A DNA stretch of 47,329 nucleotides. Origin: Candidatus Woesebacteria bacterium. Lineage in GTDB: Bacteria; Patescibacteriota; Microgenomatia; UBA8517. The DNA lies in NCBI GenBank assembly GCA_963784785.1, contig CAWASW010000015.1, positions 68,149 to 115,477 of the forward strand. Reading direction: 5' to 3'. Under the pieces are notes generated by a model. It was not told where the DNA came from. It did not search any database and was given only the letters and a program-made list of their open reading frames with translations. The position numbers were made by a program, and so were the translations under genes. This document shows, piece after piece, positions 2,405 through 44,058 of this stretch (position 1 is its first letter; every line of letters begins with the position of its first letter).

Positions 2405-3517
2405 TTATGATTTTATATATTTAGATATTGCAGTAATAAATTCCTTTTTGAAAATTTCTTTTGAAAATCGTTTTGCATTTTTTATTAGATTCTCTCTATT
2501 AAAACTCATTGTATCAAATTTTGCAATTGCATGTTTTAAACTCTCTATGGTTTGTTCTTTAAAGAACACCCCTGTAATTTCATCTATAACAGTATCAAGT
2601 GCACCACCTCGATTATAGGCAATAACTGGCACACCAAAACTTTGTGTTTCAACAGCAGTGATTCCAAAGTCTTCGTCTTGTGGCATCAAGAATGCTTTTG
2701 CATTGGAATATAGCTCCACGAGTTTCTCATCTGAAACTTGTCCTAAAAATTTTATATTACTTTTTGCTTTATGCTTTAAATTAAATTCTTCAGCACCAGT
2801 TCCAACAATTACCAAAGGAATATTCAATTCATTAAAAGCATCAATCAACAAATCAACTTTTTTATATCTCACCAACCGCCCAACATATAGATAATAATTT
2901 CCAATTTCCAATTTCCAATTTCCATTCAATTTCCAATTTCCAATTTCCATTGGGGGAAAGATAACTTCGCTCTCGCGATCGTAATATTTTTTAATTCTTC
3001 TTTGTACCTCAGATGATATTGCAATATATTTATCAGGTCTTTGAGACGCTGTTTTATCCCACCATCTTAAATAATTGATAACAGGTTTTGTAAGACCTTT
3101 AAAGGTCAAACCTTTGAAGTATATATCGTAACCACTCCACAGGTATCTAGTAGGAGTAAGGCAATAACAAACATGCAACGTTTTTGTACCCGTAATAATT
3201 CCTTTTGCTGCTTCAGATGTCACAGAGATAACCAAATCATATTCCGTAAAAGAGAATTGCTCAAAAGCAATTGGCATTAGCCATCCTAATAACTCATGGT
3301 GATTTTTTAATATTGGAATATTTTGCAAAAAAGAGGTATACACCTGTGGAAAAACTTTAGACCAAGAGGCTTTTTTCGAATCGTAAAGTGCCGTATAAAG
3401 TGGTGCATCTGGAAACATCTCATGAAGCGTTAATAGTACTCTTTCCGCCCCACCAAATTTATTTACGCGATCGTATACAATCGCAATTTTTAGTTTATTT
3501 AAATTTGTTTTATTCAT
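2405..3517 (-). CDS. GT4 glycosyltransferase
   Basis: GGAERV, GRLVRYK, EDFGITAVE (EX7E-type motif). Confidence 0.93.
   Translation of the reverse strand: MNKTNLNKLKIAIVYDRVNKFGGAERVLLTLHEMFPDAPLYTALYDSKKASWSKVFPQVYTSFLQNIPILKNHHELLGWLMPIAFEQFSFTEYDLVISVTSEAAKGIITGTKTLHVCYCLTPTRYLWSGYDIYFKGLTFKGLTKPVINYLRWWDKTASQRPDKYIAISSEVQRRIKKYYDRESEVIFPPMEIGNWKLNGNWKLEIGNYYLYVGRLVRYKKVDLLIDAFNELNIPLVIVGTGAEEFNLKHKAKSNIKFLGQVSDEKLVELYSNAKAFLMPQDEDFGITAVETQSFGVPVIAYNRGGALDTVIDEITGVFFKEQTIESLKHAIAKFDTMSFNRENLIKNAKRFSKEIFKKEFITAISKYIKS
2896..2948. repeat. Heptamer array (AATTTCC)4-ATTC-(AATTTCC)3 in the GT4 interdomain linker
   Basis: Read directly; encodes EIGNWKLNGNWKLEIGN. Confidence 0.95.
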
Positions 3518-3537
3518 TTGACAATTTATGATATAAT
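3518..3537 (+). promoter_or_regulatory. Extended -10 (TGATATAAT) with TTGACA 8 nt upstream, antisense to the operon
   Basis: ttgaca 3518-3523, tataat 3532-3537. Confidence 0.55.
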
Positions 3538-3543
3538 TTAACT

Positions 3544-3631
3544 ATTAACAAGCTCCCAAGGACAAAGGCCCGTGTGGCCGAGCTTTAAAAAGCTACTTGG
3601 AAAGTTGACCCCGCTTTATTGCGGGGTTTTT
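3544..3631 (+). ncRNA. Candidate structured small RNA convergent with DUF3800 gene
   Basis: Promoter upstream; stems AAGCUC/GAGCUU and GGCC-CGUGU-GGCC; possible pseudoknot CCAAG/CUUGG; terminator at the 3' end. Confidence 0.5.
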
Positions 3632-4192
3632 AATATTTTGAAATTTATATTCAATAAAAAGTTTATTTCGCTTTTTTAATCTTTTAATCAAAATTGAGGC
3701 ATCAGTACTATTTAAATTATCAACGCTGTATCTAGTTAAACCTGCTATAGAATCTGCTAATTGAATGCCTCCATACGAATCCTCTTTTCGAACTGATTTT
3801 AGTTTAGAAATTTTGATATCTTTATCTCTAAGTATCATCTTTAGTTTTCGTTCATATGACTTACTTTTTTTACCATCAATATAAATTATCTTTATGTTGT
3901 GCTCTGTAATAAGCTGCTGAAATACTAAGTCATACATATTATTTATGTTTATTGGATTCTCAAATAATGCAACTTTATATATAAAATCTAAATCTAATAT
4001 TTTATTAATATACTTTTGTCTAACTTTCCATCCATGCTCCGCCCAATGAAAACTGTTAAGCTTTAGATCATTTAGTATTTTTTTATAGCCAGTGTCAAAT
4101 TTTTCTTGATTGGATACTTCAAGATATACAACTGCTATAGTTGCATGACCTATCTTTGACCCAGTTCCCGATTCATCGATAAAAATGTGCAT
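3593..4192 (-). CDS. DUF3800 family protein (RNase H-like fold)
   Basis: MHIFIDESG N-terminus, YIDG, QLADSIAG. Start 4192 is preferred over 4228 because it avoids overlap with the NUDIX gene. Confidence 0.8.
   Translation of the reverse strand: MHIFIDESGTGSKIGHATIAVVYLEVSNQEKFDTGYKKILNDLKLNSFHWAEHGWKVRQKYINKILDLDFIYKVALFENPININNMYDLVFQQLITEHNIKIIYIDGKKSKSYERKLKMILRDKDIKISKLKSVRKEDSYGGIQLADSIAGLTRYSVDNLNSTDASILIKRLKKRNKLFIEYKFQNIKNPAIKRGQLSK
3608..3631 (+). terminator. Intrinsic terminator
   Basis: ACCCCGC-tttatt-GCGGGGT followed by a T run. Confidence 0.7.
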
Positions 4193-4196
4193 GGGT

Positions 4197-4751
4197 TTAT
4201 TTAAATATTTCAGGATGGTGAATTTCAACTAATTTAATTAATGCTAGAGTATCAGAAGCTTCTATCTCGCCTTTTTTTATTTTTTGGTTAATTTGTTCTA
4301 AAGGTACCAAAACCACTTCTATCTCTTCATTTTCATCAAAACATTGACCATTTACGAATTCAATATCATTTGAATAAAAACAATTAACTTGAACATTACT
4401 TTTTGATGGTTCTGTAATTATTTTTGATATAAATTCCAGGTTATTCAATCTATAACCTGTCTCTTCTAAAAATTCACGTATTGCTTCAGATATTACATCT
4501 GCTTTTTCATCAATTCTACCGGCAGGTAATTCTAATACTACTTTACCTATCCCATGTTTATATTGCTGAACAAAAACTACTTCGTTTTTATTGTTAACTG
4601 AAAATATCATAACGACATCACCCAATTGTTGAGAAAAATACTCAATAATTTTTCCACTCGGTAGTTCGACAGTATCCTTAACAAGCTTGAACCACTTACT
4701 TGGTGAAATATCTTCTTGTTTTAATATTTTCCAATTAGTTAATTGACTCAT
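4197..4751 (-). CDS. NUDIX hydrolase (ADP-ribose/NDP-sugar pyrophosphatase-like)
   Basis: LELPAG followed by Nudix box GRIDEKADVISEAIREFLEETGY. Confidence 0.9.
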   Translation of the reverse strand: MSQLTNWKILKQEDISPSKWFKLVKDTVELPSGKIIEYFSQQLGDVVMIFSVNNKNEVVFVQQYKHGIGKVVLELPAGRIDEKADVISEAIREFLEETGYRLNNLEFISKIITEPSKSNVQVNCFYSNDIEFVNGQCFDENEEIEVVLVPLEQINQKIKKGEIEASDTLALIKLVEIHHPEIFK

Positions 4752-5262
4752 ATATTTTTAAAGTTTCTTTTGCCATTTTAGACCAAGAATATTTTTTAAT
4801 ATATGCTTGAGCATATTTTATTTTGGAATCCCTTACAGACTTTGGCGTTTCTATAACTTTTGTAATTGCTTCAGCAATTGATTTGGTGTCCATCGGATCA
4901 AAATACAAAACAGAATCCTTATAAACTTCTTTTAATACTGGGATATCAGAGATAATTGCTAAAGTTCCTGCTTCAATTGCTTCCTTTGGAGGAAGACCAA
5001 AACCTTCAGAAAGCGTAGGAAATATGAAAGCAACCGCACCTCGATACAACTTTTTTAGTTCTTGGTCAGGAACAAAGCCCAATATCTCAACATATTTTGT
5101 AGCTTTTTTTAATCTAATTTCTTTTTGTAATCTTTCTATAAAAATGTTTCTGCCTGACACTATTTTCAATTTTGTTTTTATCGACAACATAGCGTCAATC
5201 AGTCTACTTAGATTTTTATGGGGATAGGCATTTCCAGTATAAATTAAATAATCACCCTTCAT
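4735..5262 (-). CDS. GT4 C-terminal (donor-binding) domain, split gene part 2
   Basis: YTGNAYPHKN, EGFGLPPKEA. Confidence 0.85.
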   Translation of the reverse strand: MKGDYLIYTGNAYPHKNLSRLIDAMLSIKTKLKIVSGRNIFIERLQKEIRLKKATKYVEILGFVPDQELKKLYRGAVAFIFPTLSEGFGLPPKEAIEAGTLAIISDIPVLKEVYKDSVLYFDPMDTKSIAEAITKVIETPKSVRDSKIKYAQAYIKKYSWSKMAKETLKIYESIN

Positions 5263-5776
5263 ATGTTACCTCCACTTTATTCGGATTAATTTTATAATAA
5301 TTTATTAATTCTTCTTTGACCGCATTACTTGGTACAATAATTTTAATTGAGCCGTGTACGGCTTTAGCAAAGACTAAATAATAACCAAGTCTCCAGATTT
5401 GGTAAATTGGAAAATTTCGAGTTGTTGCAGCGCCACTTTTAAATTTATGCATGATCAGATCATGAATTGTTACTATATATTTTCCAAAATAAAAAAGGGG
5501 GACATTAAAATGTGGAAAATGAACTAAATCAGGCTTTAATTTATACAACAAAAAAGGCAACTTAAATTGTTCTTCAAACGAATAATGTTTAAAATCCGCC
5601 AATATTTTTTCAAAATTGTTTGGCAATTTCAAATCACTTATATTTTCTTTTCTTAATAATATTTGATATTGATTTCTTGAATCAATTTTGGCTAAATTAT
5701 CAATCAAATTCTGAGTATATCTACCGTTACCAGTATTTTTAGGACCATAAAGTCTAGCGTCAATTATAATTTTCAT
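5252..5776 (-). CDS. GT4 N-terminal (acceptor) domain, split gene part 1
   Basis: MKIIIDAR..TGNGRY, VTIHDL, IVPSNAVK; ends VTYEG. Confidence 0.85.
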   Translation of the reverse strand: MKIIIDARLYGPKNTGNGRYTQNLIDNLAKIDSRNQYQILLRKENISDLKLPNNFEKILADFKHYSFEEQFKLPFLLYKLKPDLVHFPHFNVPLFYFGKYIVTIHDLIMHKFKSGAATTRNFPIYQIWRLGYYLVFAKAVHGSIKIIVPSNAVKEELINYYKINPNKVEVTYEG

Positions 5777-6966
5777 AGTTGATTCTCATATATTTTATTC
5801 AACTTATCCACTATAGATTTCCAATCAAAATTTTCTTTGACAAACTTTTTTCCGTTATTACTTAAGTTTTCGGAAATTTTTTTATTCTTTAATACTTTTA
5901 TCGTCATTTTGGCAAGTTCATTCACGTCAGACGAAACCAAAGCATGTGTTCCTGAAACTATATCTAAACCAGCAACTCCCACAGGAGTTGAAACTACAGG
6001 AAGACCTGCAGCCATGGATTCCAACACTTTTAATCTAGTTCCCCCAGGGCTCATTATTGGAACCACCAAGACTGAAGCAGCCTTAAAAACATCTCTGTTA
6101 TCTTTAATTGATTCGCTTATCTCTATATCCTTATCGTTTTTCGTTAGTTCAATTATTTTCTCTGGTATAGACCTGCCAGAAATCCATAACTTGGCGTCTT
6201 TTACATCTTTTTTAATTATTGGCCATATATCTTTTATTAAAATATTTACAGCCTCTACATTCTGCATCCATTTATAATCACCGTGATACAAAATTCTCTG
6301 GGGAACTTTTTTTATTACTTTCTTTTCATCAAAATAACTAACATCAACTCCATTTGGGATAATCCCAACATCAATTCCAGGCATCTCTTTTTCCATTATC
6401 TCTTTATCCTCTTCAGATACTGCAAAAAGCTTACTTGCGCGTTTCCAATAGTACTTTTCCCAAAACTTTAACTTAATAACATCAAACATGTAAATCGGCT
6501 TTACAAACCAAGGAACTTCATTATCTGCATAATGACCATAAACAGAAAATTCTATAGTAGGTTCAACCAATATTATTGGGACTTTGGTTTCTGGTATGTG
6601 AGGCATAACATAGAAAGTTTCAGCATGAATTACATCGTATTTATTGTTTTCTAACTCTTTTTTAATTGCGGCCCTTTCTTCCATTGAAAAATTTCTAATA
6701 ACAACAAGGGGATTAAATGTGACTAACGTTAAAAAAAGATTTCTTAAAGTCCAAGGAGATTTAGGTCTGTCAAAAACTAAAATTTTTTCACAATATTTTT
6801 CGATTTCAGGCAAATGAGCGAGTTCTTTTTCTCGATCTCCACGTATCAAAGACATCACCGTAATCTTATGTTTCTTAGATAAAAACTTGATCAAATGATA
6901 CCAACGCGTCTGCCCCCCAGACATCTGGTCAATAGGTAAAAACGGCAAGAGCATGAGAATCTTCAT
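5773..6966 (-). CDS. GT4 glycosyltransferase
   Basis: SGGQTR, IIPNGVD, GGTRLKVLESMAAGLPVVST. Confidence 0.92.
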   Translation of the reverse strand: MKILMLLPFLPIDQMSGGQTRWYHLIKFLSKKHKITVMSLIRGDREKELAHLPEIEKYCEKILVFDRPKSPWTLRNLFLTLVTFNPLVVIRNFSMEERAAIKKELENNKYDVIHAETFYVMPHIPETKVPIILVEPTIEFSVYGHYADNEVPWFVKPIYMFDVIKLKFWEKYYWKRASKLFAVSEEDKEIMEKEMPGIDVGIIPNGVDVSYFDEKKVIKKVPQRILYHGDYKWMQNVEAVNILIKDIWPIIKKDVKDAKLWISGRSIPEKIIELTKNDKDIEISESIKDNRDVFKAASVLVVPIMSPGGTRLKVLESMAAGLPVVSTPVGVAGLDIVSGTHALVSSDVNELAKMTIKVLKNKKISENLSNNGKKFVKENFDWKSIVDKLNKIYENQL

Positions 6967-6967
6967 A

Positions 6968-11851: not shown

Positions 11852-11857
11852 AATTAT

Positions 11858-13024: not shown

Positions 13025-14093
13025 TTGCCTCCTTGTAAACTTTTAGTGTTTCTTCTGCAGTCTTTGTCCAAGAGAAGTCTGCCACGCGTTTTAGACCTTT
13101 TGCAATTAAAGTCTTAGGCTTTGAAAGGGCTTCTTCTATGCCATCTGCAATCGAATTAACATCATAAGGATCAACCAAAACTGCAGCTCCTCCTGCAACT
13201 TCTGGCATGCTAGAAATATTTGATGTAACAACAGGAACTTCACAGTTAAATGCATCAAGAACTGGAATACCTAAACCTTCATAAAGAGATGGAAAAACTA
13301 AAGCGCTTGAACCAGTCAATAAGGCAGAAAGTTCATCATCAGGCAAATGTCCAAGAAATCTAACACCTCTTTCATCCTCAAGTTTGGTATTTATCTTCTC
13401 CCCAACAATAATTAATTTTAAATTCTTACCATATTTAGACAAATGATAAGCATCAATTATACTTTGAGTATTCTTTCTGGGGTTGGCTCCTATCGCAATT
13501 ATGTAATCTTCGCGAATTGCATATTTCTTTTTGATTTCTTCGACCTCATTAGATTTGGATAAATTTGGAGCCTCATAAATAACTCTAATTTTATTTTCAT
13601 CAAACCCTAATTCAATCAAATCATTCTTGGTGGCAATACTTGGGACAATAATAATTTTTGATTCTTTATTAACCCACTTTAACCTTTCCTTGTGTGTTTC
13701 CACTACTAACCTTGGGGTAATCTTTGAAAACTTCAAGGCTACTAAATCGTGCACCGTTGTAACTTTATTCATTTTAGATGGTGGCTCTGCCCAATCTGAA
13801 GTATGAACAGCATCAACCTGCCCAATCAACTTTTCAATTGGTAATATATGCAATTTATTCCAAACAATGTCAGCAATTCTGGGTGGAATCGGAAAAGTTT
13901 TTACAGTAGTTCTTGGAGTCAATCCTAAATCATTAATCTTAAATCTTAAATCTTTAATCCTACGGAGTGATCCACCATACAAAACATATTCGTTTTCTGA
14001 ATCAATTTTAAGTAAATTACGAACCAGATTCTCACGATAATGAGAGACTCCTGTACCATAAATTATTTGAGATAAGTCAATTGCGTAGCGCAT
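13014..14093 (-). CDS. GT4 glycosyltransferase
   Basis: TGVSHY, TVHDL, PRKN, EGLGIPVLDA. Confidence 0.92.
   Translation of the reverse strand: MRYAIDLSQIIYGTGVSHYRENLVRNLLKIDSENEYVLYGGSLRRIKDLRFKINDLGLTPRTTVKTFPIPPRIADIVWNKLHILPIEKLIGQVDAVHTSDWAEPPSKMNKVTTVHDLVALKFSKITPRLVVETHKERLKWVNKESKIIIVPSIATKNDLIELGFDENKIRVIYEAPNLSKSNEVEEIKKKYAIREDYIIAIGANPRKNTQSIIDAYHLSKYGKNLKLIIVGEKINTKLEDERGVRFLGHLPDDELSALLTGSSALVFPSLYEGLGIPVLDAFNCEVPVVTSNISSMPEVAGGAAVLVDPYDVNSIADGIEEALSKPKTLIAKGLKRVADFSWTKTAEETLKVYKEASEK
13920..13961. repeat. Heptamer array caatcct aaatcat taatctt aaatctt aaatctt taatcct
   Basis: Six units; encodes RIKDLRFKINDLGL in GT4. Confidence 0.9.
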
Positions 14094-15369: not shown

Positions 15370-16208
15370 TTTGATCCTTTTTTAGTAAACATGAAATCAA
15401 TTATACCGACGCAGATACCTGCGTCGAAAACTATTTTAAAAATTAAATAGGCAGGTAGCATATAGTACGTAGCACGTAGAATACCTAGGACAACAGATAC
15501 AGGTAGTGAACTTCTTACTAAGCCAACTAAGTAACCAAGTAACCCAAATTTATACTTTCTTTTTCCTACCCACTTTGCATGGTTATATATTTCCTTCAGA
15601 TTATCTGGATTTTTATGGAAAAATATTGCCTTCTCAGCAACTGTTGCATCGTAGCCTAATTTCTCAGACAAACTCCAATCGTCGTTGTAGCCGCCGGCAG
15701 TAAACCCGCCAACTTTATCAAATTCAGACTTTAAAATTGCTCTAAACACTTTTTGGGTATTAGGATAATTTTTTGGGTGTCTTCTTTTGTTTACCCAACC
15801 TTCGTTAACGTTATAGCATCTGGCAAAAACTTTGTCCCAGTTACTAACTATTTCATCTTTAGAAAATGTACCTTTTGATTTACCACTGATTATTGGTTTG
15901 ACCAACATTTTTAAAAAGTGTCTGTCAAAAGTCATGTCGCTATCAACAAAAACCAAAATATTGCCCTTAGCAATTTTTGCTCCTTCATTTCTTGCCCCTC
16001 CTGCTCCCAAGTGTTTTGTTTTTAATGTTCTGAATTGGAAACTGGAAATTGGAAATTGGAAATTCTGCAAAACTTCATAAGTTTTGTCAGATGATCCATC
16101 ATCTACTACTACTACCTCAAAATCATGAACACTCTGCTTAGCAAGAGAATTTAAGCAATCTAAAATTACATCTTCTTCGTTGTATGTTGGTATTATTACA
16201 GAAATCAT
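15366..16208 (-). CDS. GT2 glycosyltransferase
   Basis: SVIIPTYNE, VDDGS, FVDSD. Confidence 0.93.
   Translation of the reverse strand: MISVIIPTYNEEDVILDCLNSLAKQSVHDFEVVVVDDGSSDKTYEVLQNFQFPISSFQFRTLKTKHLGAGGARNEGAKIAKGNILVFVDSDMTFDRHFLKMLVKPIISGKSKGTFSKDEIVSNWDKVFARCYNVNEGWVNKRRHPKNYPNTQKVFRAILKSEFDKVGGFTAGGYNDDWSLSEKLGYDATVAEKAIFFHKNPDNLKEIYNHAKWVGKRKYKFGLLGYLVGLVRSSLPVSVVLGILRATYYMLPAYLIFKIVFDAGICVGIIDFMFTKKGSK
15454..15481. repeat. Degenerate heptamer array ggtagca tatagta cgtagca cgtagaa
   Basis: Four units; encodes LRATYYMLP. Confidence 0.65.
16032..16066. repeat. Heptamer array gaattgg aaactgg aaattgg aaattgg aaattct
   Basis: Five units; encodes NFQFPISSFQF; reverse complement of the 2896 unit. 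Confidence 0.9.
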
Positions 16209-17443: not shown

Positions 17444-18332
17444 ATTGTTTAGCAATACTATCCCAACTAAATTTTTCTGCCTGCTTTCTAGGTTTGTATT
17501 TCCAATCAGTACTTAGTGCCTTTTCGATAGCATTTGCATACGCATCAATGTCGGTTGGATCGACAAATATTCCAGCATTACCTACAATCTCGCGTCGCAT
17601 AAGATCATCTGTCGCAACAACAGCAAGACAAGAAGCCATAGCTTCTATCAATACAATTCCAAATGATTCCCATGGAACTGTAGGAAAAACAAAAAGATCA
17701 GCCTTATTGTAAATTTCAGGCATCTTATCATTTGTCGTTTCCACCACTTCAAATCTATCTTTTCCCAAAGTCTTTAATCCCAAATTGATAATCTCCTGTT
17801 TTTTGTCTCCCCCTCCTCCAGCTATTATTAATTTTGCATCCTTTAATTTTGAAACCGCCTTAATAGTTAAATCGTGTCTTTTGTTTTCAGTAAATGCTCC
17901 AACTGCCAAAACTGTCTTTAGCTGTTGGCTTTTAGCTTTTGGTCTAACTACAAAACGACCCAGATCAACTCCATTTGGAATTTTGGCTACTTTTACAATC
18001 GGATTTATTTTTTTGGCCCAGTTTACTGCATAATCAGAAAGTCCTATAAAATAATCAGGAAAAGCATATAAATTTAACCTATCATCAAGCCCTATTCCAG
18101 ATTGACCGGAAACTATCATTTTAGAACCAGTTAACCATGTTAAAACTCGAACAACAAAAACTTGTAATCTTCCATTGGTGGGAATCACAACATCATATTT
18201 CTTAGATAAATTAATTTTTGTTGAAATATCAACTTCATGATTTTCAGAAAGTCTTTTGGCAAGTTCTGAAACAAAAGTTTCAGCACCTCTGTTTACCTTA
18301 AACTGATATTTGTTGATAATTGCAATTTTCAT
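17418..18332 (-). CDS. GT4 glycosyltransferase
   Basis: RGAETF, IPNGVD, ESFGIVLIEAMA. Confidence 0.92.
   Translation of the reverse strand: MKIAIINKYQFKVNRGAETFVSELAKRLSENHEVDISTKINLSKKYDVVIPTNGRLQVFVVRVLTWLTGSKMIVSGQSGIGLDDRLNLYAFPDYFIGLSDYAVNWAKKINPIVKVAKIPNGVDLGRFVVRPKAKSQQLKTVLAVGAFTENKRHDLTIKAVSKLKDAKLIIAGGGGDKKQEIINLGLKTLGKDRFEVVETTNDKMPEIYNKADLFVFPTVPWESFGIVLIEAMASCLAVVATDDLMRREIVGNAGIFVDPTDIDAYANAIEKALSTDWKYKPRKQAEKFSWDSIAKQYEEILNTL
17914..17941. repeat. Degenerate heptamer array gtcttta gctgttg gctttta gcttttg
   Basis: Four units in the GT4 linker, PKAKSQQLKT. Confidence 0.65.
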
Positions 18333-19482: not shown

Positions 19483-20715
19483 TTAGTTCTTCCTACACAA
19501 TTCTACCTTCTTCTCAATGATCTTGCATTCATAAAACTTGTCTACAAAAAGATATAGCTCTGGAAAAATTTTATCCCTTTCCCCAATTACTACTGCCTCG
19601 GGCATTTTTGATTTTAAATCATTTAGTATTTTATCTTTGTTATTATCATAACCTAAATACCATGGAATGTATGGAATAAGCGGCTTTGTAGCAGGAAGTG
19701 TATTTGTTAAAGCGTATATATTGTCCCAATAGTTTATAACATAAATACTAGAATATTGATTAGAGATTATAGAATTTTGAACTTTCTGGACATCAGATTC
19801 AAAAAAGCGAGTTCCTCCCCCCAAGTTCCTCCAAATTCCTATAAATATAAACCCTGTAAATAATAACGAAGTAAATAATTTAAACAGTATATTTTTCTTT
19901 GAAAAAATAAATGTTGCAAATGCAATCGCCAAAAATGGTAATGCTGGTTGAAAATGAAACAGTTCCCATCTAGGACAAACTCCCATTGCACCAACAATGG
20001 CAAAAATAAGTACTGTGTACTCTGCACTAAGTACTGCAACAAAAAATGGAGCAGACGCGAACAATAATTGTTTTAAAGTAGGTAAAGATATCTGCCCTAC
20101 TGCATTTGGCAAATACAATATTCCAAATTTAATTGCCCAATTGTAGTAATCATCTAAAATACCAAGATAAGCAAAAAGTATCAAAGGTACCAAAAGTACC
20201 GATATCGATCCGATTACAAATTGTTTAGATCTTTGTACTATGTACTTTGTACTATGTACTATTGCAATTACTACGGGAATTGCAAAATAAATAAATGTTT
20301 GTTTAGTCAAAAATCCTAAAGCAAAAGTAACTCCAACCCAGACATATTTTCCCTCTCTTACAAAGAGATACAACAAGATTGCAAAAGGAGTAAGAGCCAA
20401 ATCAAACCATAGACCATTGCCCTCAAACACAAAGGATAAAAGAATGTAGGTTAAAGATGACAGATATGCATTTTTTTTGTTCCAAAACTTTTTAGCTACA
20501 AAATAAGTTAAATAAGTATTAGTGGCGATTAAAATCCAAGTATAAATTTTAAGCTGCAATATCCCCACACCGAAGAGTTTGTAAAAAATTGCCAAATCTA
20601 AAAGCATCAGAGGGTTATGAGCAATAGCGATATCACGATAAGGCAACCAACCTTGAAGCATTAAATACGGCCAAGCCAACATCTCCGGCCATGCAGTGAA
20701 TGTTAAATTAGTCAT
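19483..20715 (-). CDS. GT-C-like membrane protein
   Basis: GWLPYRD..HNP, LTKQ; multi-TM. Confidence 0.75.
   Translation of the reverse strand: MTNLTFTAWPEMLAWPYLMLQGWLPYRDIAIAHNPLMLLDLAIFYKLFGVGILQLKIYTWILIATNTYLTYFVAKKFWNKKNAYLSSLTYILLSFVFEGNGLWFDLALTPFAILLYLFVREGKYVWVGVTFALGFLTKQTFIYFAIPVVIAIVHSTKYIVQRSKQFVIGSISVLLVPLILFAYLGILDDYYNWAIKFGILYLPNAVGQISLPTLKQLLFASAPFFVAVLSAEYTVLIFAIVGAMGVCPRWELFHFQPALPFLAIAFATFIFSKKNILFKLFTSLLFTGFIFIGIWRNLGGGTRFFESDVQKVQNSIISNQYSSIYVINYWDNIYALTNTLPATKPLIPYIPWYLGYDNNKDKILNDLKSKMPEAVVIGERDKIFPELYLFVDKFYECKIIEKKVELCRKN
19746..19780. repeat. Degenerate heptamer array tactaga atattga ttagaga ttataga attttga
   Basis: Five units with GA every 7 nt; encodes NSIISNQYSS. 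Confidence 0.6.
20231..20265. repeat. Heptamer array ctttgta ctatgta ctttgta ctatgta ctattgc
   Basis: Five units; encodes IVHSTKYIVQR. Confidence 0.9.
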
Positions 20716-21865: not shown

Positions 21866-22703
21866 TTTTGAACAACCTCCTTAATTTTTTAAACGGAGTC
21901 ACAATCATTGACTGTAGTCTGTAGACTGTAGACATTACAGCCCATGGTGAAGGAACAATTTCTGGTCTCTCTTTAAAAAACACTTCTGGATAATAAAAAT
22001 CTAGAGAAAAACTTAAACCTAATTCATGCTTTATTTTTTTCTTTCGTTTTGGAACATTAACAACCGAAGCTTCATATGAAGTTCGAGACAAAAAAGTAGT
22101 GTGTAAATACGGAGCATCAACAAATTTAAAAGTATTTCTGTCTTGGATTTGTTTACCGTCTTTATCTGCCCAGCCCCACACTCCGTGCTGACCTTCTGAA
22201 TGCAAACCTTCAATACTTCTTTTTACTGCTCTTAAATTAAAATGCCCTAATTTGTCTCCAAATTTATATCTTCCTGCATTATCAGGCTGCTTATGAAAAA
22301 TATCGCCTATTACGTTGACCGTCGGAACCACAATACTTTCCGTAGGAGTTCTTGTATTACTTGTAATACTTTTTATACATGTAACTACTTGTGTTATGGA
22401 TTCCTTCCACCATATTTCATCATCGTCGACAACAATAAACCAATCGGCTTCCGTTACATCTAGCATTGCCTGCCTTGCTGCCGGAAATGTCTCTGAAGTA
22501 ACTGCCCCATATTGCCTTAAATCAATTTTGTCCCCATATTTTTCCTTAAGCAATTTTGCAATTTCCCATGATTTATCAGTTGATCCAGTATCCCAAAGCA
22601 AAATTTTATCAACGTGATCAATTACTGAAGTAACTGAAAACCACAGCCATTTTTCACTATTTTTAAACAATGTATGTGCCCAAACTGTAGATTTAAGATT
22701 CAT
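21846..22703 (-). CDS. GT2 glycosyltransferase
   Basis: DTGSTD, ARQ, WFIVVDDDE. Confidence 0.88.
   Translation of the reverse strand: MNLKSTVWAHTLFKNSEKWLWFSVTSVIDHVDKILLWDTGSTDKSWEIAKLLKEKYGDKIDLRQYGAVTSETFPAARQAMLDVTEADWFIVVDDDEIWWKESITQVVTCIKSITSNTRTPTESIVVPTVNVIGDIFHKQPDNAGRYKFGDKLGHFNLRAVKRSIEGLHSEGQHGVWGWADKDGKQIQDRNTFKFVDAPYLHTTFLSRTSYEASVVNVPKRKKKIKHELGLSFSLDFYYPEVFFKERPEIVPSPWAVMSTVYRLQSMIVTPFKKLRRLFKNEKVGY
21910..21937. repeat. Heptamer array gactgta gtctgta gactgta gacatta
   Basis: Four units; encodes MSTVYRLQS. Confidence 0.85.
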
Positions 22704-22716
22704 GTTTATGATTTAA
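22690..22716. repeat. Heptamer array gatttaa gattcat gtttat gatttaa at the 3' end of the four-helix-bundle gene (inverted-repeat arm)
   Basis: 22690-22704 is the reverse complement of 23077-23091 at 14 of 15 positions; one unit is 6 nt. Confidence 0.8.
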
Positions 22717-23079
22717 GAATTCTTTAGAACTTCGTATTAGACCCTGTAGCAATTTGTGACTGGTATCTGCCTGCAATTTAATTTTCAAATACTCTTCATT
22801 AGGTAAATATTCAACATCTAATGCAATAATTAATTGATTTTTTAATTCTGTCAATGATCCTTGAGCCAAATAATAAAATTGAATTTTCTCCTTATAGGAT
22901 TGTCTTCCAAATCCTTCTGCAATATTCGAGGTAATCGACACAGCTGCTCTATGCATTTGATCGACAAGGGAATACATCTCGTCCCTTGGAAAATACTTTG
23001 TGCATTTATATATCAAAAGTACAAGTTTATGACTCTCTTTCCATGTCGTTAAATCTGTAAAATCCTTTATTGCTGTCAT
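22693..23079 (-). CDS. Four helix bundle protein (23S rRNA IVP / bAvd-like, TIGR02436-type)
   Basis: F.DL..W, FP..E.Y.L..QM.RAAVSITSNIAEGFGR, A.GSL.E. Confidence 0.93.
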   Translation of the reverse strand: MTAIKDFTDLTTWKESHKLVLLIYKCTKYFPRDEMYSLVDQMHRAAVSITSNIAEGFGRQSYKEKIQFYYLAQGSLTELKNQLIIALDVEYLPNEEYLKIKLQADTSHKLLQGLIRSSKEFLNHKHES

Positions 23080-23107
23080 AAATCTTAAATCGTATATCCT
23101 AAATCAA
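23077..23107. repeat. Heptamer array aaatctt aaatcgt atatcct aaatcaa abutting the four-helix-bundle start codon
   Basis: Four units at 23080-23107, directly upstream of the ATG. Confidence 0.85.
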
Positions 23108-23178
23108 TAAACTACACCTACGATACTATCATTTTATCCTAAATGAATTAAAATAACATATTAGATAATATTGAATAT

Positions 23179-29266: not shown

Positions 29267-29272
29267 GTCCAT

Positions 29273-29292
29273 ATTATACACTATTTTGTCAA
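29273..29292 (-). promoter_or_regulatory. TTGACA-N8-TATAAT element
   Basis: tgtcaa 29287-29292 and attata 29273-29278 on +; overlaps the stop codon of the upstream GT-C gene. Confidence 0.5.
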
Positions 29293-30776
29293 TTTCTGAC
29301 AAGGAGTACAGCCCTGCCATTTTCTCTCTCATAATTATCCCCAGCCTTGAATTCATATTCACCCACAAATTTATAATTTGGTAGGATTTTCTGATTTTTT
29401 GGATTTTCAAAAATCTCCCTCCACTCTTCTCCCATATAGTAATTATCATCATCCATTTTGTAGGAAGTTAGATATATATAGTCAATTTTGGAGTCAGACC
29501 CCGAAAGATGATTCGGGGTTAATGGGAACCAAACAGTCTTCCTTTCTCCATACCAACTTCCCCAAGTATCAAGATTGGTAAGTATGACATCCTCTTTACC
29601 TGTAATTTCTTTTAATTTGTAGGACATTTCAGCATAAATTGGAGCCTTGCCAATATTATGCATTTTTCTCTCAAATCTAGAATCTAAAAATACTATTCCC
29701 AACGTCTGCCCTACTGCAAAAAATAAAACTAAAAATGTAGTTATCAATCCAACCATAACTTTTTTTGTTATTTTAAAATTGAATATTAAAAATTCATTGA
29801 AAATTGTAAATTGTAAATTGAAAATTTGTGTCAAAGTGGCTACTGCCACTATGTACACCAGTGGTACAACGGGATGAAGGTAACGGTAAAAGGGTATTGT
29901 TAAGGCCGTCACTAAAAATGTAAGCCCAGTCATGAATAGTACAGAAAAGTTAAATGGCGAATATTTTTTGCAAACTCCTATTACAAACAATACAAATAGA
30001 TATGGATTCATTATCTGAGGCATAGCTTTATAGAAGTTATATAAGTTATAAAAAACTTTTTTTATAAGTATTAGCAGATTAAAATCAACCGTAGAACCAC
30101 GTAGTGAATCAGAAACGGCCATGCCAGGTAAATTCTGTGTAACAGCAATCAGTCCTTGTTTTGAGAATAATGCGTAGAGTATTGTTCCAGCCAAGAAAGA
30201 TATAAATGTGTAGACCGAACCTTTCTTCCAACTGAAGTTATTTATAAAGTAATAAAGAATCAAACCAAAAATATAAATTATTGCTTGAGGACGAGTAAAG
30301 TACATCAAAACCATAAATACTAAGCCAAGTACATTCCCCCACCACTTTTTAATTGACAGGAAATATGTTCCAGCTAGTAGTTCAAAAATAAATGGTGATT
30401 CAGAGGCCCCACTTGTAGCATATTTAATTAGATCGTAATTAAAACCAACTGCAACAATAGATAAAACTGAAGTTAGTCTATCTTTGTAAATCTTCTGTGT
30501 TAAAAGAAAAACAAAAAGCAAAGTTAACAAAAAAAAGAAAAATGAAGTCGCAATAACTGCAAAATCACCTATACCAAAAATTTTAAAAAACAAAGATATT
30601 GAATATGGCATTACAGGAGATATCCAATCAGACATATCATACCCCCAGAAATTAAACATTGAATTAAATTCATTATTTAATATCAAATTTCTTCCAACAT
30701 CGGCATACTTAGCTGAATCTGAAAAAAATAAGTATAAATTATACATTTGTATAATAATTGTACTATTTAAAAGCAC
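29289..30776 (-). CDS. GT-C membrane glycosyltransferase (ArnT/PMT_2-like)
   Basis: FSDSAKY loop, SESPF, TRPQ, RY. Start may be 30746. Confidence 0.8.
   Translation of the reverse strand: MLLNSTIIIQMYNLYLFFSDSAKYADVGRNLILNNEFNSMFNFWGYDMSDWISPVMPYSISLFFKIFGIGDFAVIATSFFFFLLTLLFVFLLTQKIYKDRLTSVLSIVAVGFNYDLIKYATSGASESPFIFELLAGTYFLSIKKWWGNVLGLVFMVLMYFTRPQAIIYIFGLILYYFINNFSWKKGSVYTFISFLAGTILYALFSKQGLIAVTQNLPGMAVSDSLRGSTVDFNLLILIKKVFYNLYNFYKAMPQIMNPYLFVLFVIGVCKKYSPFNFSVLFMTGLTFLVTALTIPFYRYLHPVVPLVYIVAVATLTQIFNLQFTIFNEFLIFNFKITKKVMVGLITTFLVLFFAVGQTLGIVFLDSRFERKMHNIGKAPIYAEMSYKLKEITGKEDVILTNLDTWGSWYGERKTVWFPLTPNHLSGSDSKIDYIYLTSYKMDDDNYYMGEEWREIFENPKNQKILPNYKFVGEYEFKAGDNYERENGRAVLLVRN
29774..29826. 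repeat. Heptamer array: 3 units, CATT, 4 units (gaaaatt gtaaatt...)
   Basis: Encodes IFNLQFTIFNEFLIFNFK. Confidence 0.9.
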
Positions 30777-30831
30777 ATATTCAAAGTTATGTTCAAATTA
30801 ATAAAAAAATGTATAATCACACAATAAGCGT

Positions 30832-31533: not shown

Positions 31534-31534
31534 G

Positions 31535-32116: not shown

Positions 32117-32121
32117 AAATA

Positions 32122-36009: not shown

Positions 36010-36018
36010 AATACAAAT

Positions 36019-37017: not shown

Positions 37018-37027
37018 TTATATTAAA

Positions 37028-39955: not shown

Positions 39956-40755
39956 TTTAATTTCATTATTCCTTCTTTTAAACTAACAAACTTTTTAGCA
40001 TCAATCCCTATTTCTTTTAATGTTGTCGTATCTGCAATACTCTTACGTGGTTCAACTCTCTTATCTAAAAACTCAATATTTAATTTTTTATCATACAGCT
40101 TAGAAATTAATTTCGCCAATTCTATTACACTTATTCCTTGACCTAACCCGATGCTAACAGTTTTACCATATAAATTTTTATCAACAATTTTTTCAACAGT
40201 TGAAACAACATCGTCGACGTAAACAAAGTCTCTAACTTGTTTACCATCTCCATAAATTTTAATTGGTAAATTATTATTTACAGCGCTTATAAAACTATGT
40301 ATCACATATCCATATGATGATTTCTGACCATTTCCATAAATATTTTCTGGACGAACAACAGTTATATTTATTTGATCTTTATATAAACTTAACATTTCTT
40401 CAGACATTTTTTTTGATAACCCATATGGAGTCAGTGGTCTTGCTTTTACTGCAGCTGAAGAAAAATGAATCATATTTTTTACGCCTGCTTTAATTGCAGT
40501 TCTAACAACTGTTAATGCACCCACACTATTATTAATAAAATATTCATTTGGTTTATCCCATGATTCTGGAGCAGATATAAATGCAGCTAAATTTATTACA
40601 GTCTCAACACCTTTCATTTTTGAATATAACTTTTCTTCGTCTAAGATATTCAAACCATTTACTAAGTCATATTTAACAATTGAATGTTTTTCAGAAAGCA
40701 ACTTAACTAAATGCTTACCTACAAAACCTGATGATCCCGTAATTAAAATTTTCAT
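39952..40755 (-). CDS. NAD-dependent sugar epimerase/dehydratase
   Basis: TGSSGFVG, SSAAV, YGLSK, GDGKQVRDF. Confidence 0.92.
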   Translation of the reverse strand: MKILITGSSGFVGKHLVKLLSEKHSIVKYDLVNGLNILDEEKLYSKMKGVETVINLAAFISAPESWDKPNEYFINNSVGALTVVRTAIKAGVKNMIHFSSAAVKARPLTPYGLSKKMSEEMLSLYKDQINITVVRPENIYGNGQKSSYGYVIHSFISAVNNNLPIKIYGDGKQVRDFVYVDDVVSTVEKIVDKNLYGKTVSIGLGQGISVIELAKLISKLYDKKLNIEFLDKRVEPRKSIADTTTLKEIGIDAKKFVSLKEGIMKLK

Positions 40756-40759
40756 AAGT

Positions 40760-41542
40760 TTAAATAGTTTTAATGATTATATTCCTAAATTTATTATGCA
40801 AAAGGTGCAAAAATAAAATTAATTTATTCTTTGTATATTTTTTAACTATTTTTTCATCTTCCATTAAAAGCTTTGCAGAATTAGTTGAGGTTTTGGTATC
40901 TTTTTCCATTCTGAAGTGAGTTAAGACTTTATTTATTATTACTGGCATTTGGTCTTTTCCAATTTTTAGCCACATATCATATTCCATGACTGAGAATTTA
41001 GTTCCAGTAAACATTCCATACTTTTTGATTGCTTTTTTAGTTATAAAAACTGAGGGCTGCATGAGGTAATTAACGACTAAAAGTATGAAGTATGAATTAT
41101 GAATTAACAAATGAGACTTATAGAGAGTTGCGAATTTGGCGATTTCGATGTCGTTTTCATCGATTACTATTCCCTTTCCTGCAAACCACATTGCATCTGG
41201 GTTTTCTGTGAAGTGTCCTGCGACTGACTCAAAGGCACCTGTTGTGTAGACGTCATCAGCATTAATAAAAGTTACAATCTCCCCTTTGGCTTTTTTAAGA
41301 CCCTTATTTATGGCATCTAGTTGGCCACCGTCTTTTTTAGATTCGTACTGCACGAATGATGAATATTTCTTGGCATATTGTTTAATAATTTCCAAAGTTC
41401 CATCTGTTGAGCCTCCATCTTGAATAATAACTTCATAACTCTTGTAACTTTGGCCAACTATGGAGTCCAAAGTCTTTTTGATATATTTAACTTTATTGTA
41501 TGAAGGGATAATAATGGAAATTAGGGGTTGGTGCTTAGACAT
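40760..41542 (-). CDS. GT2 glycosyltransferase (WcaE-like, possibly fucosyltransferase)
   Basis: DGGSTDGT, DAINKG, INADD, QPS.F. Confidence 0.9.
   Translation of the reverse strand: MSKHQPLISIIIPSYNKVKYIKKTLDSIVGQSYKSYEVIIQDGGSTDGTLEIIKQYAKKYSSFVQYESKKDGGQLDAINKGLKKAKGEIVTFINADDVYTTGAFESVAGHFTENPDAMWFAGKGIVIDENDIEIAKFATLYKSHLLIHNSYFILLVVNYLMQPSVFITKKAIKKYGMFTGTKFSVMEYDMWLKIGKDQMPVIINKVLTHFRMEKDTKTSTNSAKLLMEDEKIVKKYTKNKLILFLHLLHNKFRNIIIKTI
41081..41108. repeat. Heptamer array aagtatg aagtatg aattatg aattaac
   Basis: Four units; encodes LIHNSYFIL. Confidence 0.85.
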
Positions 41543-41543
41543 T

Positions 41544-42836
41544 TTAATTGTGTTCTAATATATACTTCCAAGCAGGAACAATAATAATATCAATATTTTG
41601 AACTGAAATGTTTTTATCCTGTTCCATATTAATAATAAATCCTTTTTTTAGGCCAAACTTTTGACAAGTTTTAATTAGCCCATTAACCTCTCTTTCGTAG
41701 GTATCAGAATCATCTAGATCATAACATACTTGAACTGCACTTTCGATTTCTTCGTTACTAAGTACTAAGAAATCACATTCACTACCATTTTGAGAATAAT
41801 TAATACTTTTTCCTGATTTTATGAACTCCAAAGCTATCAAATTTTCAAGAATCCTACCTTTATCATGCGCAAATTTATAGTCAATTGACATGCCCATCCC
41901 ATGATCAATGACATAGCTTTTCTTTCGAGAACCTTCAGACTTTACAACCGAGTGAGAAAATTTTGAGACTAATCTACACATATAGATGGCCTCAACATAA
42001 TCCTGATAAAGATACAGACTATCCTTTCCCACTTGATAGCCTTGAGATTTTAAATCGTTATAAATTTTATTTACACTAAATTCATAAGAACTATTTGCAA
42101 TCAATCTTTTACAAAAATATTTTAATGTAGATATTTGAGAAACTTTAAACCTGTCTACAAGATCCCTGAACAACATTGTATTAAAATATTCTTGATGAAC
42201 TTTGCTCCTCAAATGTTTGTTCATCTTAATAGTTTCAGGAAATCCACCCTGTTTCATAAATTTTGAAAAATAACTAGTTACCTTAGATTTATCTTTACTT
42301 TTATTTAGATTGAATTTTGGGAACATAACGTTTAAGTATTCACTAAAAGAGAGTGGATAAACCTCATAAGTTAAAGTGCGACCTCGAAGTGTAGTTGCAA
42401 TTTCCTTAGATAACAATTTAGAATTTGAACCGGTTATAAAAACATTTTGTGAAATTGAGGAATATAAACGAGATACAAATTTTTCCCAGCCTTCCACCTC
42501 TTGAACTTCGTCAAACAAAAAATAACAATCTGATAAATTTGTTTCCGGAAAAAGCTCCGCGTATGATTGTAGTATCAAATCTAAGTCCTTTGAAGACAAC
42601 GTAAAACGTTCATCCTCAAAATTTAAATACAATATTCTAGATGGATCAATCCCAATATTTTTTAAATTTTTTATAACTCCAAACAAGTGATATGTTTTTC
42701 CACTTCTACGCACACCAGACAGCGTAATTATTTTCTTACTATCTATAGGAATTTTTAAATTTCTATCCCATACATCTGGATATATCCTTGACTGATTATC
42801 TAAAATAATTGTTTTTATTAATTCTTTTGTTATCAT
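41544..42836 (-). CDS. AAA+ ATPase (AAA_14 + DUF4143, C-terminal PD-(D/E)xK-like)
   Basis: GVRRSGKT, FLFDEVQ, TGSNS, GG FP-type motif, EN, ECDF...QVC. Confidence 0.9.
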   Translation of the reverse strand: MITKELIKTIILDNQSRIYPDVWDRNLKIPIDSKKIITLSGVRRSGKTYHLFGVIKNLKNIGIDPSRILYLNFEDERFTLSSKDLDLILQSYAELFPETNLSDCYFLFDEVQEVEGWEKFVSRLYSSISQNVFITGSNSKLLSKEIATTLRGRTLTYEVYPLSFSEYLNVMFPKFNLNKSKDKSKVTSYFSKFMKQGGFPETIKMNKHLRSKVHQEYFNTMLFRDLVDRFKVSQISTLKYFCKRLIANSSYEFSVNKIYNDLKSQGYQVGKDSLYLYQDYVEAIYMCRLVSKFSHSVVKSEGSRKKSYVIDHGMGMSIDYKFAHDKGRILENLIALEFIKSGKSINYSQNGSECDFLVLSNEEIESAVQVCYDLDDSDTYEREVNGLIKTCQKFGLKKGFIINMEQDKNISVQNIDIIIVPAWKYILEHN

Positions 42837-42862
42837 TTAAATTAGCCTCATTTCTATTGAAG

Positions 42863-42915
42863 TTTCCTTCTAATAAGGAAATATTACTACTAAAGTTTCC
42901 TTCTGTCAAGGAAAC
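42863..42915 (-). promoter_or_regulatory. Sigma70 promoter TTGACA-N17-TAATAT with two TTTCCTT-N5-AAGGAAA operators
   Basis: -35 at 42904-42909, -10 at 42881-42886; palindromes at 42863-42881 and 42895-42915; GAGG RBS at 42846-42849. Confidence 0.8.
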
Positions 42916-43032
42916 ATTCTGACTGATATTTTGAAAATTTAGTATCTAGATGTTGGTTTGGAGTTACCAAAAAATATTACTATTTGGTAAGTGGCGATAT
43001 CGTTTAGTATTAAATTGTGCCTGCTAATTAAT

Positions 43033-43359
43033 TTATTTATCTTTTAGGGCTAATTTGCGGACTAAGTCCTCAATTCTTTTTTCAAGCCTACTAACTCTGA
43101 CATAACTACTCGCGACCATGATAAAAATTACTATAAATGCTCCACCAATTAGTAAATCTAGAAGTCTTGAAATGGCAAAACTGGCTGCATAGACTCTAAC
43201 AATTTCAGGAAAAATAACAATTAAAATAACCCCTAACCAAATAGTGATCCAACTTGAAATTTCCATGCCATTAAGTTGCCCTTTTTTATAATGCAAAAGA
43301 GCAAAATAAATCATAAACAGTGAAAATAATATTCCTGTAATTTGTAAACCTAAAATCAT
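43033..43359 (-). CDS. DUF2304 family small membrane protein
   Basis: Three TM segments, W....W, FP, C-terminal LVRKLAL; follows a DPM-like GT2. Confidence 0.85.
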   Translation of the reverse strand: MILGLQITGILFSLFMIYFALLHYKKGQLNGMEISSWITIWLGVILIVIFPEIVRVYAASFAISRLLDLLIGGAFIVIFIMVASSYVRVSRLEKRIEDLVRKLALKDK

Positions 43360-43361
43360 AA

Positions 43362-44029
43362 TTATATTTTAAACTTCCAAGCAATCAAATTTCCCAAGAC
43401 TCCAAAAGAATCCAAGATACTTACTCCTTTATAGCCATCATAGTATATCGTCGCTACTGGTATTTCACAATAACTTAGCGATTCTTTTTTAATCCTAACC
43501 ACCATTTCTGTTTCTACTCCATAACCTACTGACTCCCATTTGATTTTATTGTATGCAGATTTTGTAATTGCACGAAAACCTGATATTAAATCCGAAACGT
43601 ATATTCCATACATCAAACTTACTATAACTGACGCTACTTTATTACCAATATATCTAACAAAGGGAACACCTAAATTTAGATTTCTTGACCCAAAAACAAC
43701 ATCATATTTACCTTCAATCAATTTCTCTTCAAACTTTGGTAAATCTGAAACAAGATGTTGTCCGTCAGAATCCATTAAAATTACAGCATCAGCTCCATGG
43801 GAAAAAGCATATTCACAGCCAGTCTTAAGTGCCGCACCCTTTCCTAAATTTATCTTATGTTCTAGTAGCGTCATATTCTTAAATCTTGAATCTTTAATCT
43901 TAAATCTCGAGCGATCCGTCGACCCATCATCCACCACCACAATATCAATTTTGTTTTAGATAAATCTTTTAAAACTTGAAGAACTCGGTCCTCTTCATTG
44001 TGTACAGGGAGAACTATTGTTGTGTTCAT
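43362..44029 (-). CDS. GT2 DPM1-like glycosyltransferase, frameshifted near 43950
   Basis: MNTTIVLPVHNEE in one frame continues as IDIVVVDDGSTD...GKGAAL..DSDGQH in another; the break is in A-runs. Confidence 0.85.
43874..43908. repeat. Heptamer array tattctt aaatctt gaatctt taatctt aaatctc
   Basis: Five units; encodes RFKIKDSRFKN. Confidence 0.9.
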
Positions 44030-44058
44030 TGAAAATTGTAAATTGTAAATTAAAAATT
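44027..44058. repeat. Heptamer array catt gaaaatt gtaaatt gtaaatt aaaaatt spanning the fcl stop and GT2 start
   Basis: 44025-44058 matches 29793-29826 at 33 of 34 nt. Confidence 0.9.

Follow-up and report, generated by a model that had tools for sequence, protein, structure and literature searches.

What is a 7-nt tandem repeat doing at more than a dozen places in a bacterial glycan locus, and is it related to the small four-helix-bundle gene that two of these arrays enclose? The locus is a stretch of 47,329 nt from Candidatus Woesebacteria (C15:68149-115477; "the window" below means this whole stretch), part of a 930-kb genome (G000) in 21 contigs with ~34% GC and 92.8% completeness. A first-pass annotation listed 14 heptamer arrays here as a system of the glycan locus, together with a gene, IVP, of the PF05635/TIGR02436 family. 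Two puzzles meet at such a locus. Heptanucleotide tandem repeats, of the short tandemly repeated repetitive (STRR) type and similar, have no accepted function or binding partner, and the widespread PF05635/TIGR02436 genes have so far been recognised solely as passengers within rRNA intervening sequences (IVSs). The two come together in that the repeats form the termini of IVP cassettes, co-occur with IVP genes genome by genome and co-vary with them in sequence; the cassette anatomy recurs in two distant phyla. The arrays of the window are probably local members of a genome-wide heptamer class that belongs with IVP/S23p cassettes.

Period-7 arrays throughout the genome

The window was scanned with Tandem Repeats Finder (TRF) at a minimum score of 30, and period 7 accounts for 19 of the 55 rows returned, compared with 2 for period 6 and 5 for period 8. 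Of the 14 sites first listed, 13 are returned by TRF with period 7; the remaining one (19746..19780) is absent from its output and shows only a GA register by eye, which leaves this member of the annotated set unconfirmed as a repeat. A strict rule, under which at least 18 of 21 positions match at a given lag and which is identical for every lag, is passed by eight of the 14 sites (2896, 13921, 16033, 20231, 29796, 41081, 43877 and 44028), and the weaker sites at 15454, 17914, 21910, 22690 and 23080 score 30 to 41 in TRF. When exact runs of 10 or more lag matches are counted in the window, lag 7 has six and every other lag from 4 to 12 has none.

Genome-wide, 65 arrays pass the strict rule at lag 7; other lags yield 4 (lag 6), 7 (lag 8), 6 (lag 9) and 15 (lag 14), and whole-genome TRF (280 arrays) assigns 64 to period 7, 37 to period 14, 14 to period 8 and 1 to period 6. 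Codon-shuffled versions of the genome (30 shuffles, with protein sequence and codon usage retained) contain 1.43±1.15 lag-7 arrays and never more than 4. Comparison with neighbouring lags and with codon shuffles rules out chance or composition as the origin of the arrays, and the specific enrichment of period 7 that the annotation had predicted is established. The 65 arrays have a median length of 32 nt, or 4.6 units, and their units fall into few families: AAATTGG/AAATTGT, GATTTAA/GAATTAT/GAAGTAT, GTACTAW and GCGTATA.

Nine of these 65 arrays lie in the window, about 3-fold more than its 5.1% share of the genome would give (Poisson P 0.007). The arrays are nevertheless not a system of the glycan locus, as had been proposed, but a genome-wide one. 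Their hosts include ArgRS, PheRS-beta, TsaD, CysRS, RecR, FolD, UvrA and GatA, and further an AddA-like helicase-nuclease, a RadA-like protein, peptidases, PMT_2 proteins and a Wzy ligase; several of the array-bearing open reading frames (ORFs) are real genes by Pfam, among them glycosyltransferase (GT) genes of families GT2 and GT4 and a PMT_2 gene in the window. In-frame arrays across the genome, essential housekeeping genes included, rule out specificity for the glycan locus. The same observation bears on the idea that the arrays are contingency loci, in which slippage in the number of 7-nt units would change the frame and so make glycan genes phase-variable. The unit length is not divisible by three, arrays are concentrated in this glycosyltransferase locus, and one of its GT2 genes is frameshifted, though outside any array. 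However, the arrays in the first eight hosts named above are in frame in genes whose switching off would be lethal or costly, and the units are imperfect and the tracts short. Known contingency loci built of simple sequence repeats are confined to dispensable surface or modification genes, whereas the arrays here also occupy aminoacyl-tRNA synthetases, UvrA, RecR, TsaD and FolD. Phase variation fails because its host genes are essential, and we regard it as very improbable.

An IVP cassette with inverted heptamer arms

Two of the arrays in the window enclose the IVP gene (22693..23079, minus strand), which Pfam and TIGR profiles identify as encoding a 128-aa four-helix-bundle protein (127 bits against PF05635, cut-off 33.8; 117.8 bits against TIGR02436, cut-off 24). 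The protein matches PDB 2gsc, an entry that holds five chains, at E 4.7e-19. Both flanking arrays are of the GATTTAW type, stand in inverted orientation and carry the start and stop codons of the gene. The upstream arm (23079..23105, minus strand; period 7 by TRF) runs into the ATG, and the downstream arm (22690..22715, minus strand; period 7 by TRF), a complementary array, contains the TAA together with the start and first codons of the next gene, a GT2. Upstream array, IVP ORF and inverted downstream array make up an IVS-like cassette at 22690..23120 (minus strand), as defined by comparison with empty sites. Two congeners, G001 and G006, have the corresponding GT2 and asnB-like genes separated by 47-52 nt, with no cassette or array between them, and it follows that the window carries an insert of ~420-440 nt; relative to the same two genomes, the downstream arm has rewritten the N-terminus of the GT2 gene. 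In RNA folds, the two arms pair as a 15-bp terminal stem in both the minimum free energy and the centroid structure. The genome contains seven PF05635 matches, and two further IVP genes are bracketed by inverted heptamer arrays. The anatomy of the bracket, the inverted pairing of its arms and the polymorphism between occupied and empty sites are established by these comparisons.

The annotation had also related the protein to Avd of diversity-generating retroelements (DGRs). A distant relationship of the four-helix-bundle fold is indeed found: PF05635 and bAvd (PF22296, E 1e-6) are the sole matches in a Pfam scan of IVP, which shows no RAYT Y1 transposase. The gene is not a DGR Avd, however, scoring 26.3 bits against the Avd model NF033474, below the cut-off of 80. 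No reverse transcriptase (PF00078) is found in G000, G001, G026, G028 or G033, all of which bear arrays, and no pair of template and variable repeats is seen. The sub-cut-off score and the missing reverse transcriptase in the window's genome and four array-bearing relatives rule out DGR or reverse transcriptase involvement.

Heptamer flanks of IVP genes in other genomes

The bracket recurs at IVP loci in other genomes. The relatives compared with G000 are G001-G040, metagenome-assembled genomes (MAGs) with automatic taxon labels. First, 29 IVP loci from these 40 relatives (90 kb) contain 17 arrays at lag 7 and 2 at lag 6, with none at lags 5, 8, 9 and 10; most arrays directly adjoin the ORF, and each arm is the reverse complement of the other. 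Second, close homologues sharing 56-70% identity were examined at 80 loci, drawn from a wide range of Patescibacteria lineages and some MAGs labelled otherwise; these loci contain 86 lag-7 arrays in 253 kb, compared with 0-2 at other lags in the range 4-13. On the upstream side, 26 of 37 arrays stop no more than 50 nt short of the start codon; on the downstream side, 19 of 35 begin no more than 41 nt past the stop; and the arms of these close homologues are nearly always GATTTAW running into ATG plus the complement starting with TAA. Third, when a flank is called periodic if it scores at least 17 of 21 at lag 7, periodic flanks are present at 55 of 76 close homologues, 11 of 28 diverse relatives, 10 of 16 further IVPs and 6 of 8 cyanobacterial plasmid copies; the test gives 0 to 1 at lags 5, 6 and 9, and 43 of 1013 when applied to all genes of the window's genome. 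Fourth, the 45-nt flanks of 104 IVP loci pair with a mean energy of -20.3 kcal/mol, as against -12.0 for shuffled flanks, -11.5 for the direct orientation and -15.5 kcal/mol for segments displaced by 300 nt.

The same anatomy is established in cyanobacteria. A tblastn search of plasmids returned 30 records with IVP, mostly from Nostoc, Calothrix and allies, and eight of these loci (26.7 kb) contain 17 lag-7 arrays and zero at other lags from 4 to 12; two 50-kb background stretches taken from the same plasmids contain three arrays each. The arm duplexes reach -58 kcal/mol. These plasmid IVPs (L262, L267, L268 and others) are single inserts within conserved operons, and are situated between ribonucleotide reductase (rnr) genes in antisense orientation, between cas10/cmr2 and cmr3, between cas6 and cas4, and at comparable positions. 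A Pseudanabaena IVP has flanking arrays of ~100 nt that are direct rather than inverted.

Close IVP homologues (up to 69% identity) with GATTTAW arms are also present in MAGs labelled Bdellovibrionales or Gammaproteobacteria (L125, L137, L143 and others), either through horizontal spread or because Patescibacteria bins were mislabelled automatically.

Co-occurrence of arrays and IVP genes

Ten relatives with no PF05635 match contain a single lag-7 array in 895 kb, and 14 relatives with 1-10 matches contain 81 in 1.34 Mb; array density and IVP density are correlated with a Spearman rho of 0.81 (n=25, own genome included). Within the genus, at equal GC, G000, G001 and G007 have IVPs and arrays, and G003, G005 and G006 have neither. 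A survey of the phylum (401 genomes, 320 genera) gives the same picture on a larger scale: (GATTTAW)3, allowing at most one mismatch, is present in 26 genomes and a close homologue of the window IVP (E<=1e-28) in 54, and such a homologue accompanies the repeat in 15 of 26 positive genomes vs 39 of 375 others (odds ratio 11.7; Fisher P 3e-8, a value that overstates the association because related genomes are not independent). Co-occurrence of IVP genes and arrays across genomes is thereby established.

Repeat and protein also co-vary. An exact upstream 9-mer is shared by 36% of IVP pairs at 65% identity or above vs 2% of pairs below 45%. Solo arrays share an exact 11-mer with the IVP flanks of their own genome in 39% of cases in G000, 60% in G001, 58% in G033 and 44% in G040, as against 4-8% for random segments of the same genome; words of 9 to 11 nt were used in this comparison because the background of exact 7-mers is too high. 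Co-variation of units with IVP clades is established by these comparisons, and the proposal that the arrays are tied to PF05635 genes is borne out by their location, by the matching distribution of arrays and genes across genomes and by repeat units held in common. The companion proposal, that the period rather than the sequence is under selection, survives in part: units vary between genomes, but within a genome they belong to few families, which co-vary with the IVP clade.

Loss of mismatch repair does not account for this distribution. MutS (PF00488) is not found in 39 of the 41 genomes G000-G040, all from one order, with or without arrays, and is found in 11 of 14 control genomes; its absence irrespective of array status rules it out as the cause of the arrays. 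With MutS missing nearly everywhere and reverse transcriptase missing from array-rich genomes, neither explains the array pattern.

Genes and sites that carry solo arrays

Crude ORF calls place 45 of the 65 arrays entirely within ORFs, where they are evenly distributed along the genes, and the C-rich strand is sense in 25 of these and the G-rich strand in 18. Of the others, 13 are situated no more than 60 nt ahead of a start codon and seven elsewhere. The odd in-frame peptides described for the window, such as EIGNWKL and NFQFPIS, are present, as are arrays on start and stop codons. EIGNWKL, ISNFQFP and MNYELR recur across unrelated proteins, as expected if DNA, rather than protein, is repeated; the array peptides are also unconserved in orthologues.

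The arrays near start codons speak for an explanation by host regulation in cis, in which they tune translation or transcription through S1, Csp or another host binder and the coding copies are by-products. Nine of the 13 start-adjacent arrays are purine-rich on the sense strand with AGGA-like cores, and the array at 44028 abuts an ATG. The accessible text of PMC4679880 reads the TAACTGA repeats just upstream of starts in Beggiatoaceae in this way, and heptamers near starts affect reporter expression in Nostoc 7120 according to the available part of bioRxiv 10.1101/2022.06.06.494920. However, regulation in cis does not predict that most arrays sit in ORFs, in both orientations and evenly along genes, and it leaves the inverted IVP brackets and the co-occurrence with IVP unexplained. 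As the primary cause of the arrays it is quite unlikely, although it is compatible with the cassette reading if IVP is the binder.

In the GT4 gene at 2405-3517, the array fills a hypervariable interdomain linker that is unrelated and non-repetitive in five orthologues from the genus (64-72% identity). Other heptamer units are present at the same linker in 7 of 37 metagenome orthologues, and these metagenome GT4 loci contain 13 arrays at lag 7, three at lag 8 and none at lag 6; a scan of the metagenome contigs for strain-level relatives found none above 70% identity. In CysRS (G000:C7:81600-82850), an array occupies the same 11 codons in G000, in G007 and, more weakly, in the IVP-free G005; the units differ, but the length is unchanged among the three and the peptide is roughly kept as a two-unit heptad (xLKSxxx). 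This pattern suggests that an old array has evolved in concert or that the site has been overwritten repeatedly. The G003 orthologue of the gene with the array at 21910 is equal in length and differs by substitutions only. The first-pass annotation had asked whether arrays are insertions at variable loops; the GT4 linker and a loop of ArgRS do vary in length between orthologues, but 21910 and CysRS do not, and unchanged length at the latter two rules out simple insertion. Overwriting without change of length points to in-place homogenisation or ectopic conversion instead.

Such sites also speak for generic microsatellites, in which a bias of replication slippage makes 7-nt repeats, a mechanism put forward for many bacteria, and IVP cassettes are secondary, sharing the same spacers or recruiting arrays as stems. 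The GT4 linker (7/37) and CysRS, the latter weakly even in the IVP-free G005, carry different units at one permissive site in different lineages, arrays replace sequence with length unchanged, and periods 8, 9 and 14 are somewhat raised as well. Slippage nonetheless fails chiefly because of the contrast within one genus, where G003 and G005 (same GC, no MutS) have zero arrays in 100 kb each, and because of clade-specific units, which co-vary with the IVP clade across unrelated genomes. It also does not predict that few unit families recur within one genome, that the arms are inverted and complementary and carry ATG and TAA, or that empty sites have no array. We therefore consider slippage an unlikely explanation, though the least so of these three.

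Four genes of G000 other than IVPs have heptamer arrays at both ends: a pilin-like gene (C7:16364-16774), a helix-turn-helix gene (C3:45837-46166), a 249-aa gene of no named family (C3:47748-48497) and a gene resembling family-4 uracil-DNA glycosylases (C20:11490-12050). Their arrays mostly have the same sense and are purine-rich, running into the next ATG.

Other arrays and features of the window

One solo array, GGAAATT on the sense strand (2896..2951; TRF score 87-100), occupies the GT4 interdomain linker described above. Two further arrays are placed in GT4 genes: one of the AAATCTT (= GATTTAA) family inside the gene (13921..13959; assigned by TRF, unit families and Pfam), and a weak one (17917..17940; TRF score 34) at an interdomain junction given by Pfam domain limits. 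GT2 genes carry a weak period-7 array (15451..15479; TRF score 30, 72% matches), an AAATTGG-family array (16033..16064; TRF) that is read antisense and gives the peptide NFQFPIS, a short GACTGTA array close to the 3' end of its gene (21910..21933; TRF score 41), a GAAGTAT/GAATTAT array (41081..41106; TRF, Pfam) and an AAATCTT-family array (43877..43907; TRF). A CTWTGTA array (20231..20262; TRF, Pfam) lies in a PMT_2 membrane glycosyltransferase.

An AAATTGW-family array with an in-frame ATG (29796..29826; TRF) lies inside a PMT_2 ORF of 495 aa, in which two genes may have been joined by way of the stop-free array. This array is near-identical over ~32 nt to an intergenic array 14 kb away (44028..44059; TRF), and both end in ATG. 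The intergenic array abuts the true ATG (44030) of a GT2 gene (43362-44030, minus strand) that is frameshifted near 43950, in an A-rich run outside the array; the N-terminus (MNTTIVLPVHNEE...) and the DDGSTD core are encoded in different frames, which could reflect a pseudogene, an assembly error or recoding. These cases matter for annotation, in that arrays rewrite gene starts and protein loops, including loops of aminoacyl-tRNA synthetases, and can supply start or stop codons and fuse or split ORF calls.

An Rfam scan of the window gave a DUF3800-II RNA as its sole match, with no rRNA match. It lies at 3545-3610 (plus strand) in the spacer beside the GT4 gene, scores 62.4 bits against a gathering threshold of 43.2 and is unrelated to the arrays.

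A candidate model and its weak points

We think it reasonably likely that the IVP loci are selfish cassettes of the rRNA-IVS kind with heptamer arrays as terminal stems, and that the other arrays are solo copies dispersed to permissive sites. Such a cassette is ~430 nt long and consists of three to five purine-rich heptamers running into the ATG, an ORF of ~125 aa and a reverse-complement array from the stop codon, and its two arms can pair into a stem enclosing the IVP ORF. Solo arrays, ~4.6 units long and oriented either way, are built from the same unit families and would survive only where they are tolerated: in spacers (often directly before starts) and in variable protein loops and linkers, where translation reads through them in frame. 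The stem of the cassette may be processed in the transcript. Its co-variation and co-occurrence with the arrays and its oligomeric, Avd-like fold suggest that a pentameric IVP may recognise its cognate heptamer array; the pentameric state is suggested by the five chains of 2gsc and by the accessible part of PMC4990558, in which the Xanthomonas protein is a homopentamer of four-helix bundles. Solo arrays may derive from cassettes or be maintained by them, through ectopic conversion from the arms or an IVP-dependent process.

Several points weigh against this model. Some concern the data: the array thresholds were picked after a first look, though they are the same for all lags; ORF calls were crude; array density was read from 30-100 kb in each of 24 relatives, typically ~100 kb; and kinship means that the sampled genomes are not independent. 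Others concern the cassette. The fold energy of the whole cassette is no better than that of shuffles (z 0.12), the terminal stem alone standing out. One IVP of the same genome has inverted arms of period 8 and another a period-10 array (C3:114211-114600 and C14:20194-20910), and the bracket principle is consequently not strictly bound to 7 nt. Seventeen of the 28 IVP loci in diverse relatives are below the flank threshold.

The association has exceptions as well. G017 has five IVPs and G019 one, each with zero arrays in the sequence examined (100 kb for G017), and G025 has one array and no IVP match; in the phylum survey, 11 of the 26 (GATTTAW)3-positive genomes are without a close IVP at E<=1e-28, more distant IVPs not having been searched there. 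Solo arrays of G039 show no 11-mer sharing with IVP flanks, and merely 39% of those in the window's own genome do. Just 6 of the 65 arrays have an inverted partner within 600 nt, compared with 8 that have a direct one, which rules out solo arrays as miniature cassettes. At two of three compared sites the array overwrites sequence with length unchanged, which a model of insertions or scars does not predict. Causality could also run through an unseen third factor.

Tentatively, a stronger form of the model can be put forward, which we consider possible but doubtful: the IVP/S23p clades would be the missing partners of heptamer repeats. Each protein, probably as a pentamer, would read its cognate array, travel bracketed by it and help to write, homogenise or maintain copies throughout the genome, including in essential genes.

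Relation to known systems

An excess of heptamer repeats and the IVS elements are both already known; their connection is the new part. The heptamer excess is treated in the accessible part of PMC4692102, which cites Calothrix repeats and a 2007 survey, and the available text of PMC4679880 describes TAACTGA repeats in Beggiatoaceae, Cyanobacteria and Bacteroidetes. No paper linking heptamer repeats to PF05635/S23p genes was found in a search that left subscription journals and supplementary tables outside, and the terms "intervening sequence", "four helix" and "S23" have zero occurrences in PMC4679880. The partner of the Nostoc heptamer repeat is "yet to be identified" in the part of bioRxiv 10.1101/2022.06.06.494920 that is available, and IVP, a 15-kDa protein, is a concrete candidate for it.

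The closest relative of the cassette is the 23S rRNA IVS with an S23p/IVP ORF (Leptospira, Coxiella and the Xanthomonas-type protein), with which it shares the protein family, the size class (~430 nt) and a terminal stem. The Coxiella IVS is described in the accessible part of PMC4990558 as 428-444 nt long, with a 28-bp inverted-repeat stem around the S23p ORF that is cut by RNase III. A sporadic, insertion-like distribution is common to both, as the empty sites in G001 and G006 illustrate. However, the known elements occupy helix 25 or 45 of 23S rRNA, whereas the cassette here lies between GT2 and asnB-like genes in a window free of rRNA matches. Its arms are tandem heptamers that hold the start and stop codons, with units that are also dispersed genome-wide as solo arrays. 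RNase III cutting is known for the IVS and is putative for the cassette here.

The solo arrays resemble the STRR-type repeats of cyanobacteria, the GGGAATC repeats of Xanthomonas and the TAACTGA repeats. As far as the accessible descriptions go, these too are dispersed 7-nt tandems with few copies per site and several families per genome, often beside start codons, and their function and partner are unknown. On cyanobacterial plasmids, moreover, heptamer arrays bracket IVP genes as they do in this genome. The resemblance is not complete, since STRR-type repeats are described in the available literature as mainly intergenic and 45 of 65 arrays here are inside ORFs, and since the host here is a Patescibacteria-type genome of 0.93 Mb.

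A broader analogy is offered by repetitive extragenic palindromic (REP) sequences and REPINs with their RAYT genes. In REP/RAYT systems, short repeats are dispersed through the genome, a single gene is flanked by inverted copies of the repeat, repeat families are clade-specific, and repeat and gene co-occur. Likewise, the IVP gene is flanked by inverted copies of a dispersed repeat with cognate families. There are differences: IVP is a small four-helix-bundle protein in which no catalytic motif is known rather than a tyrosine transposase, and the repeats are tandem heptamers, many of them in genes, as opposed to palindromic 20-30-mers, with no mobility mechanism known. If the stronger form of the model is true, IVP and its heptamers would constitute a protein-repeat selfish system analogous to REP/RAYT, without a known transposase, and would explain the STRR-type repeats of cyanobacteria as well as the arrays of Patescibacteria.

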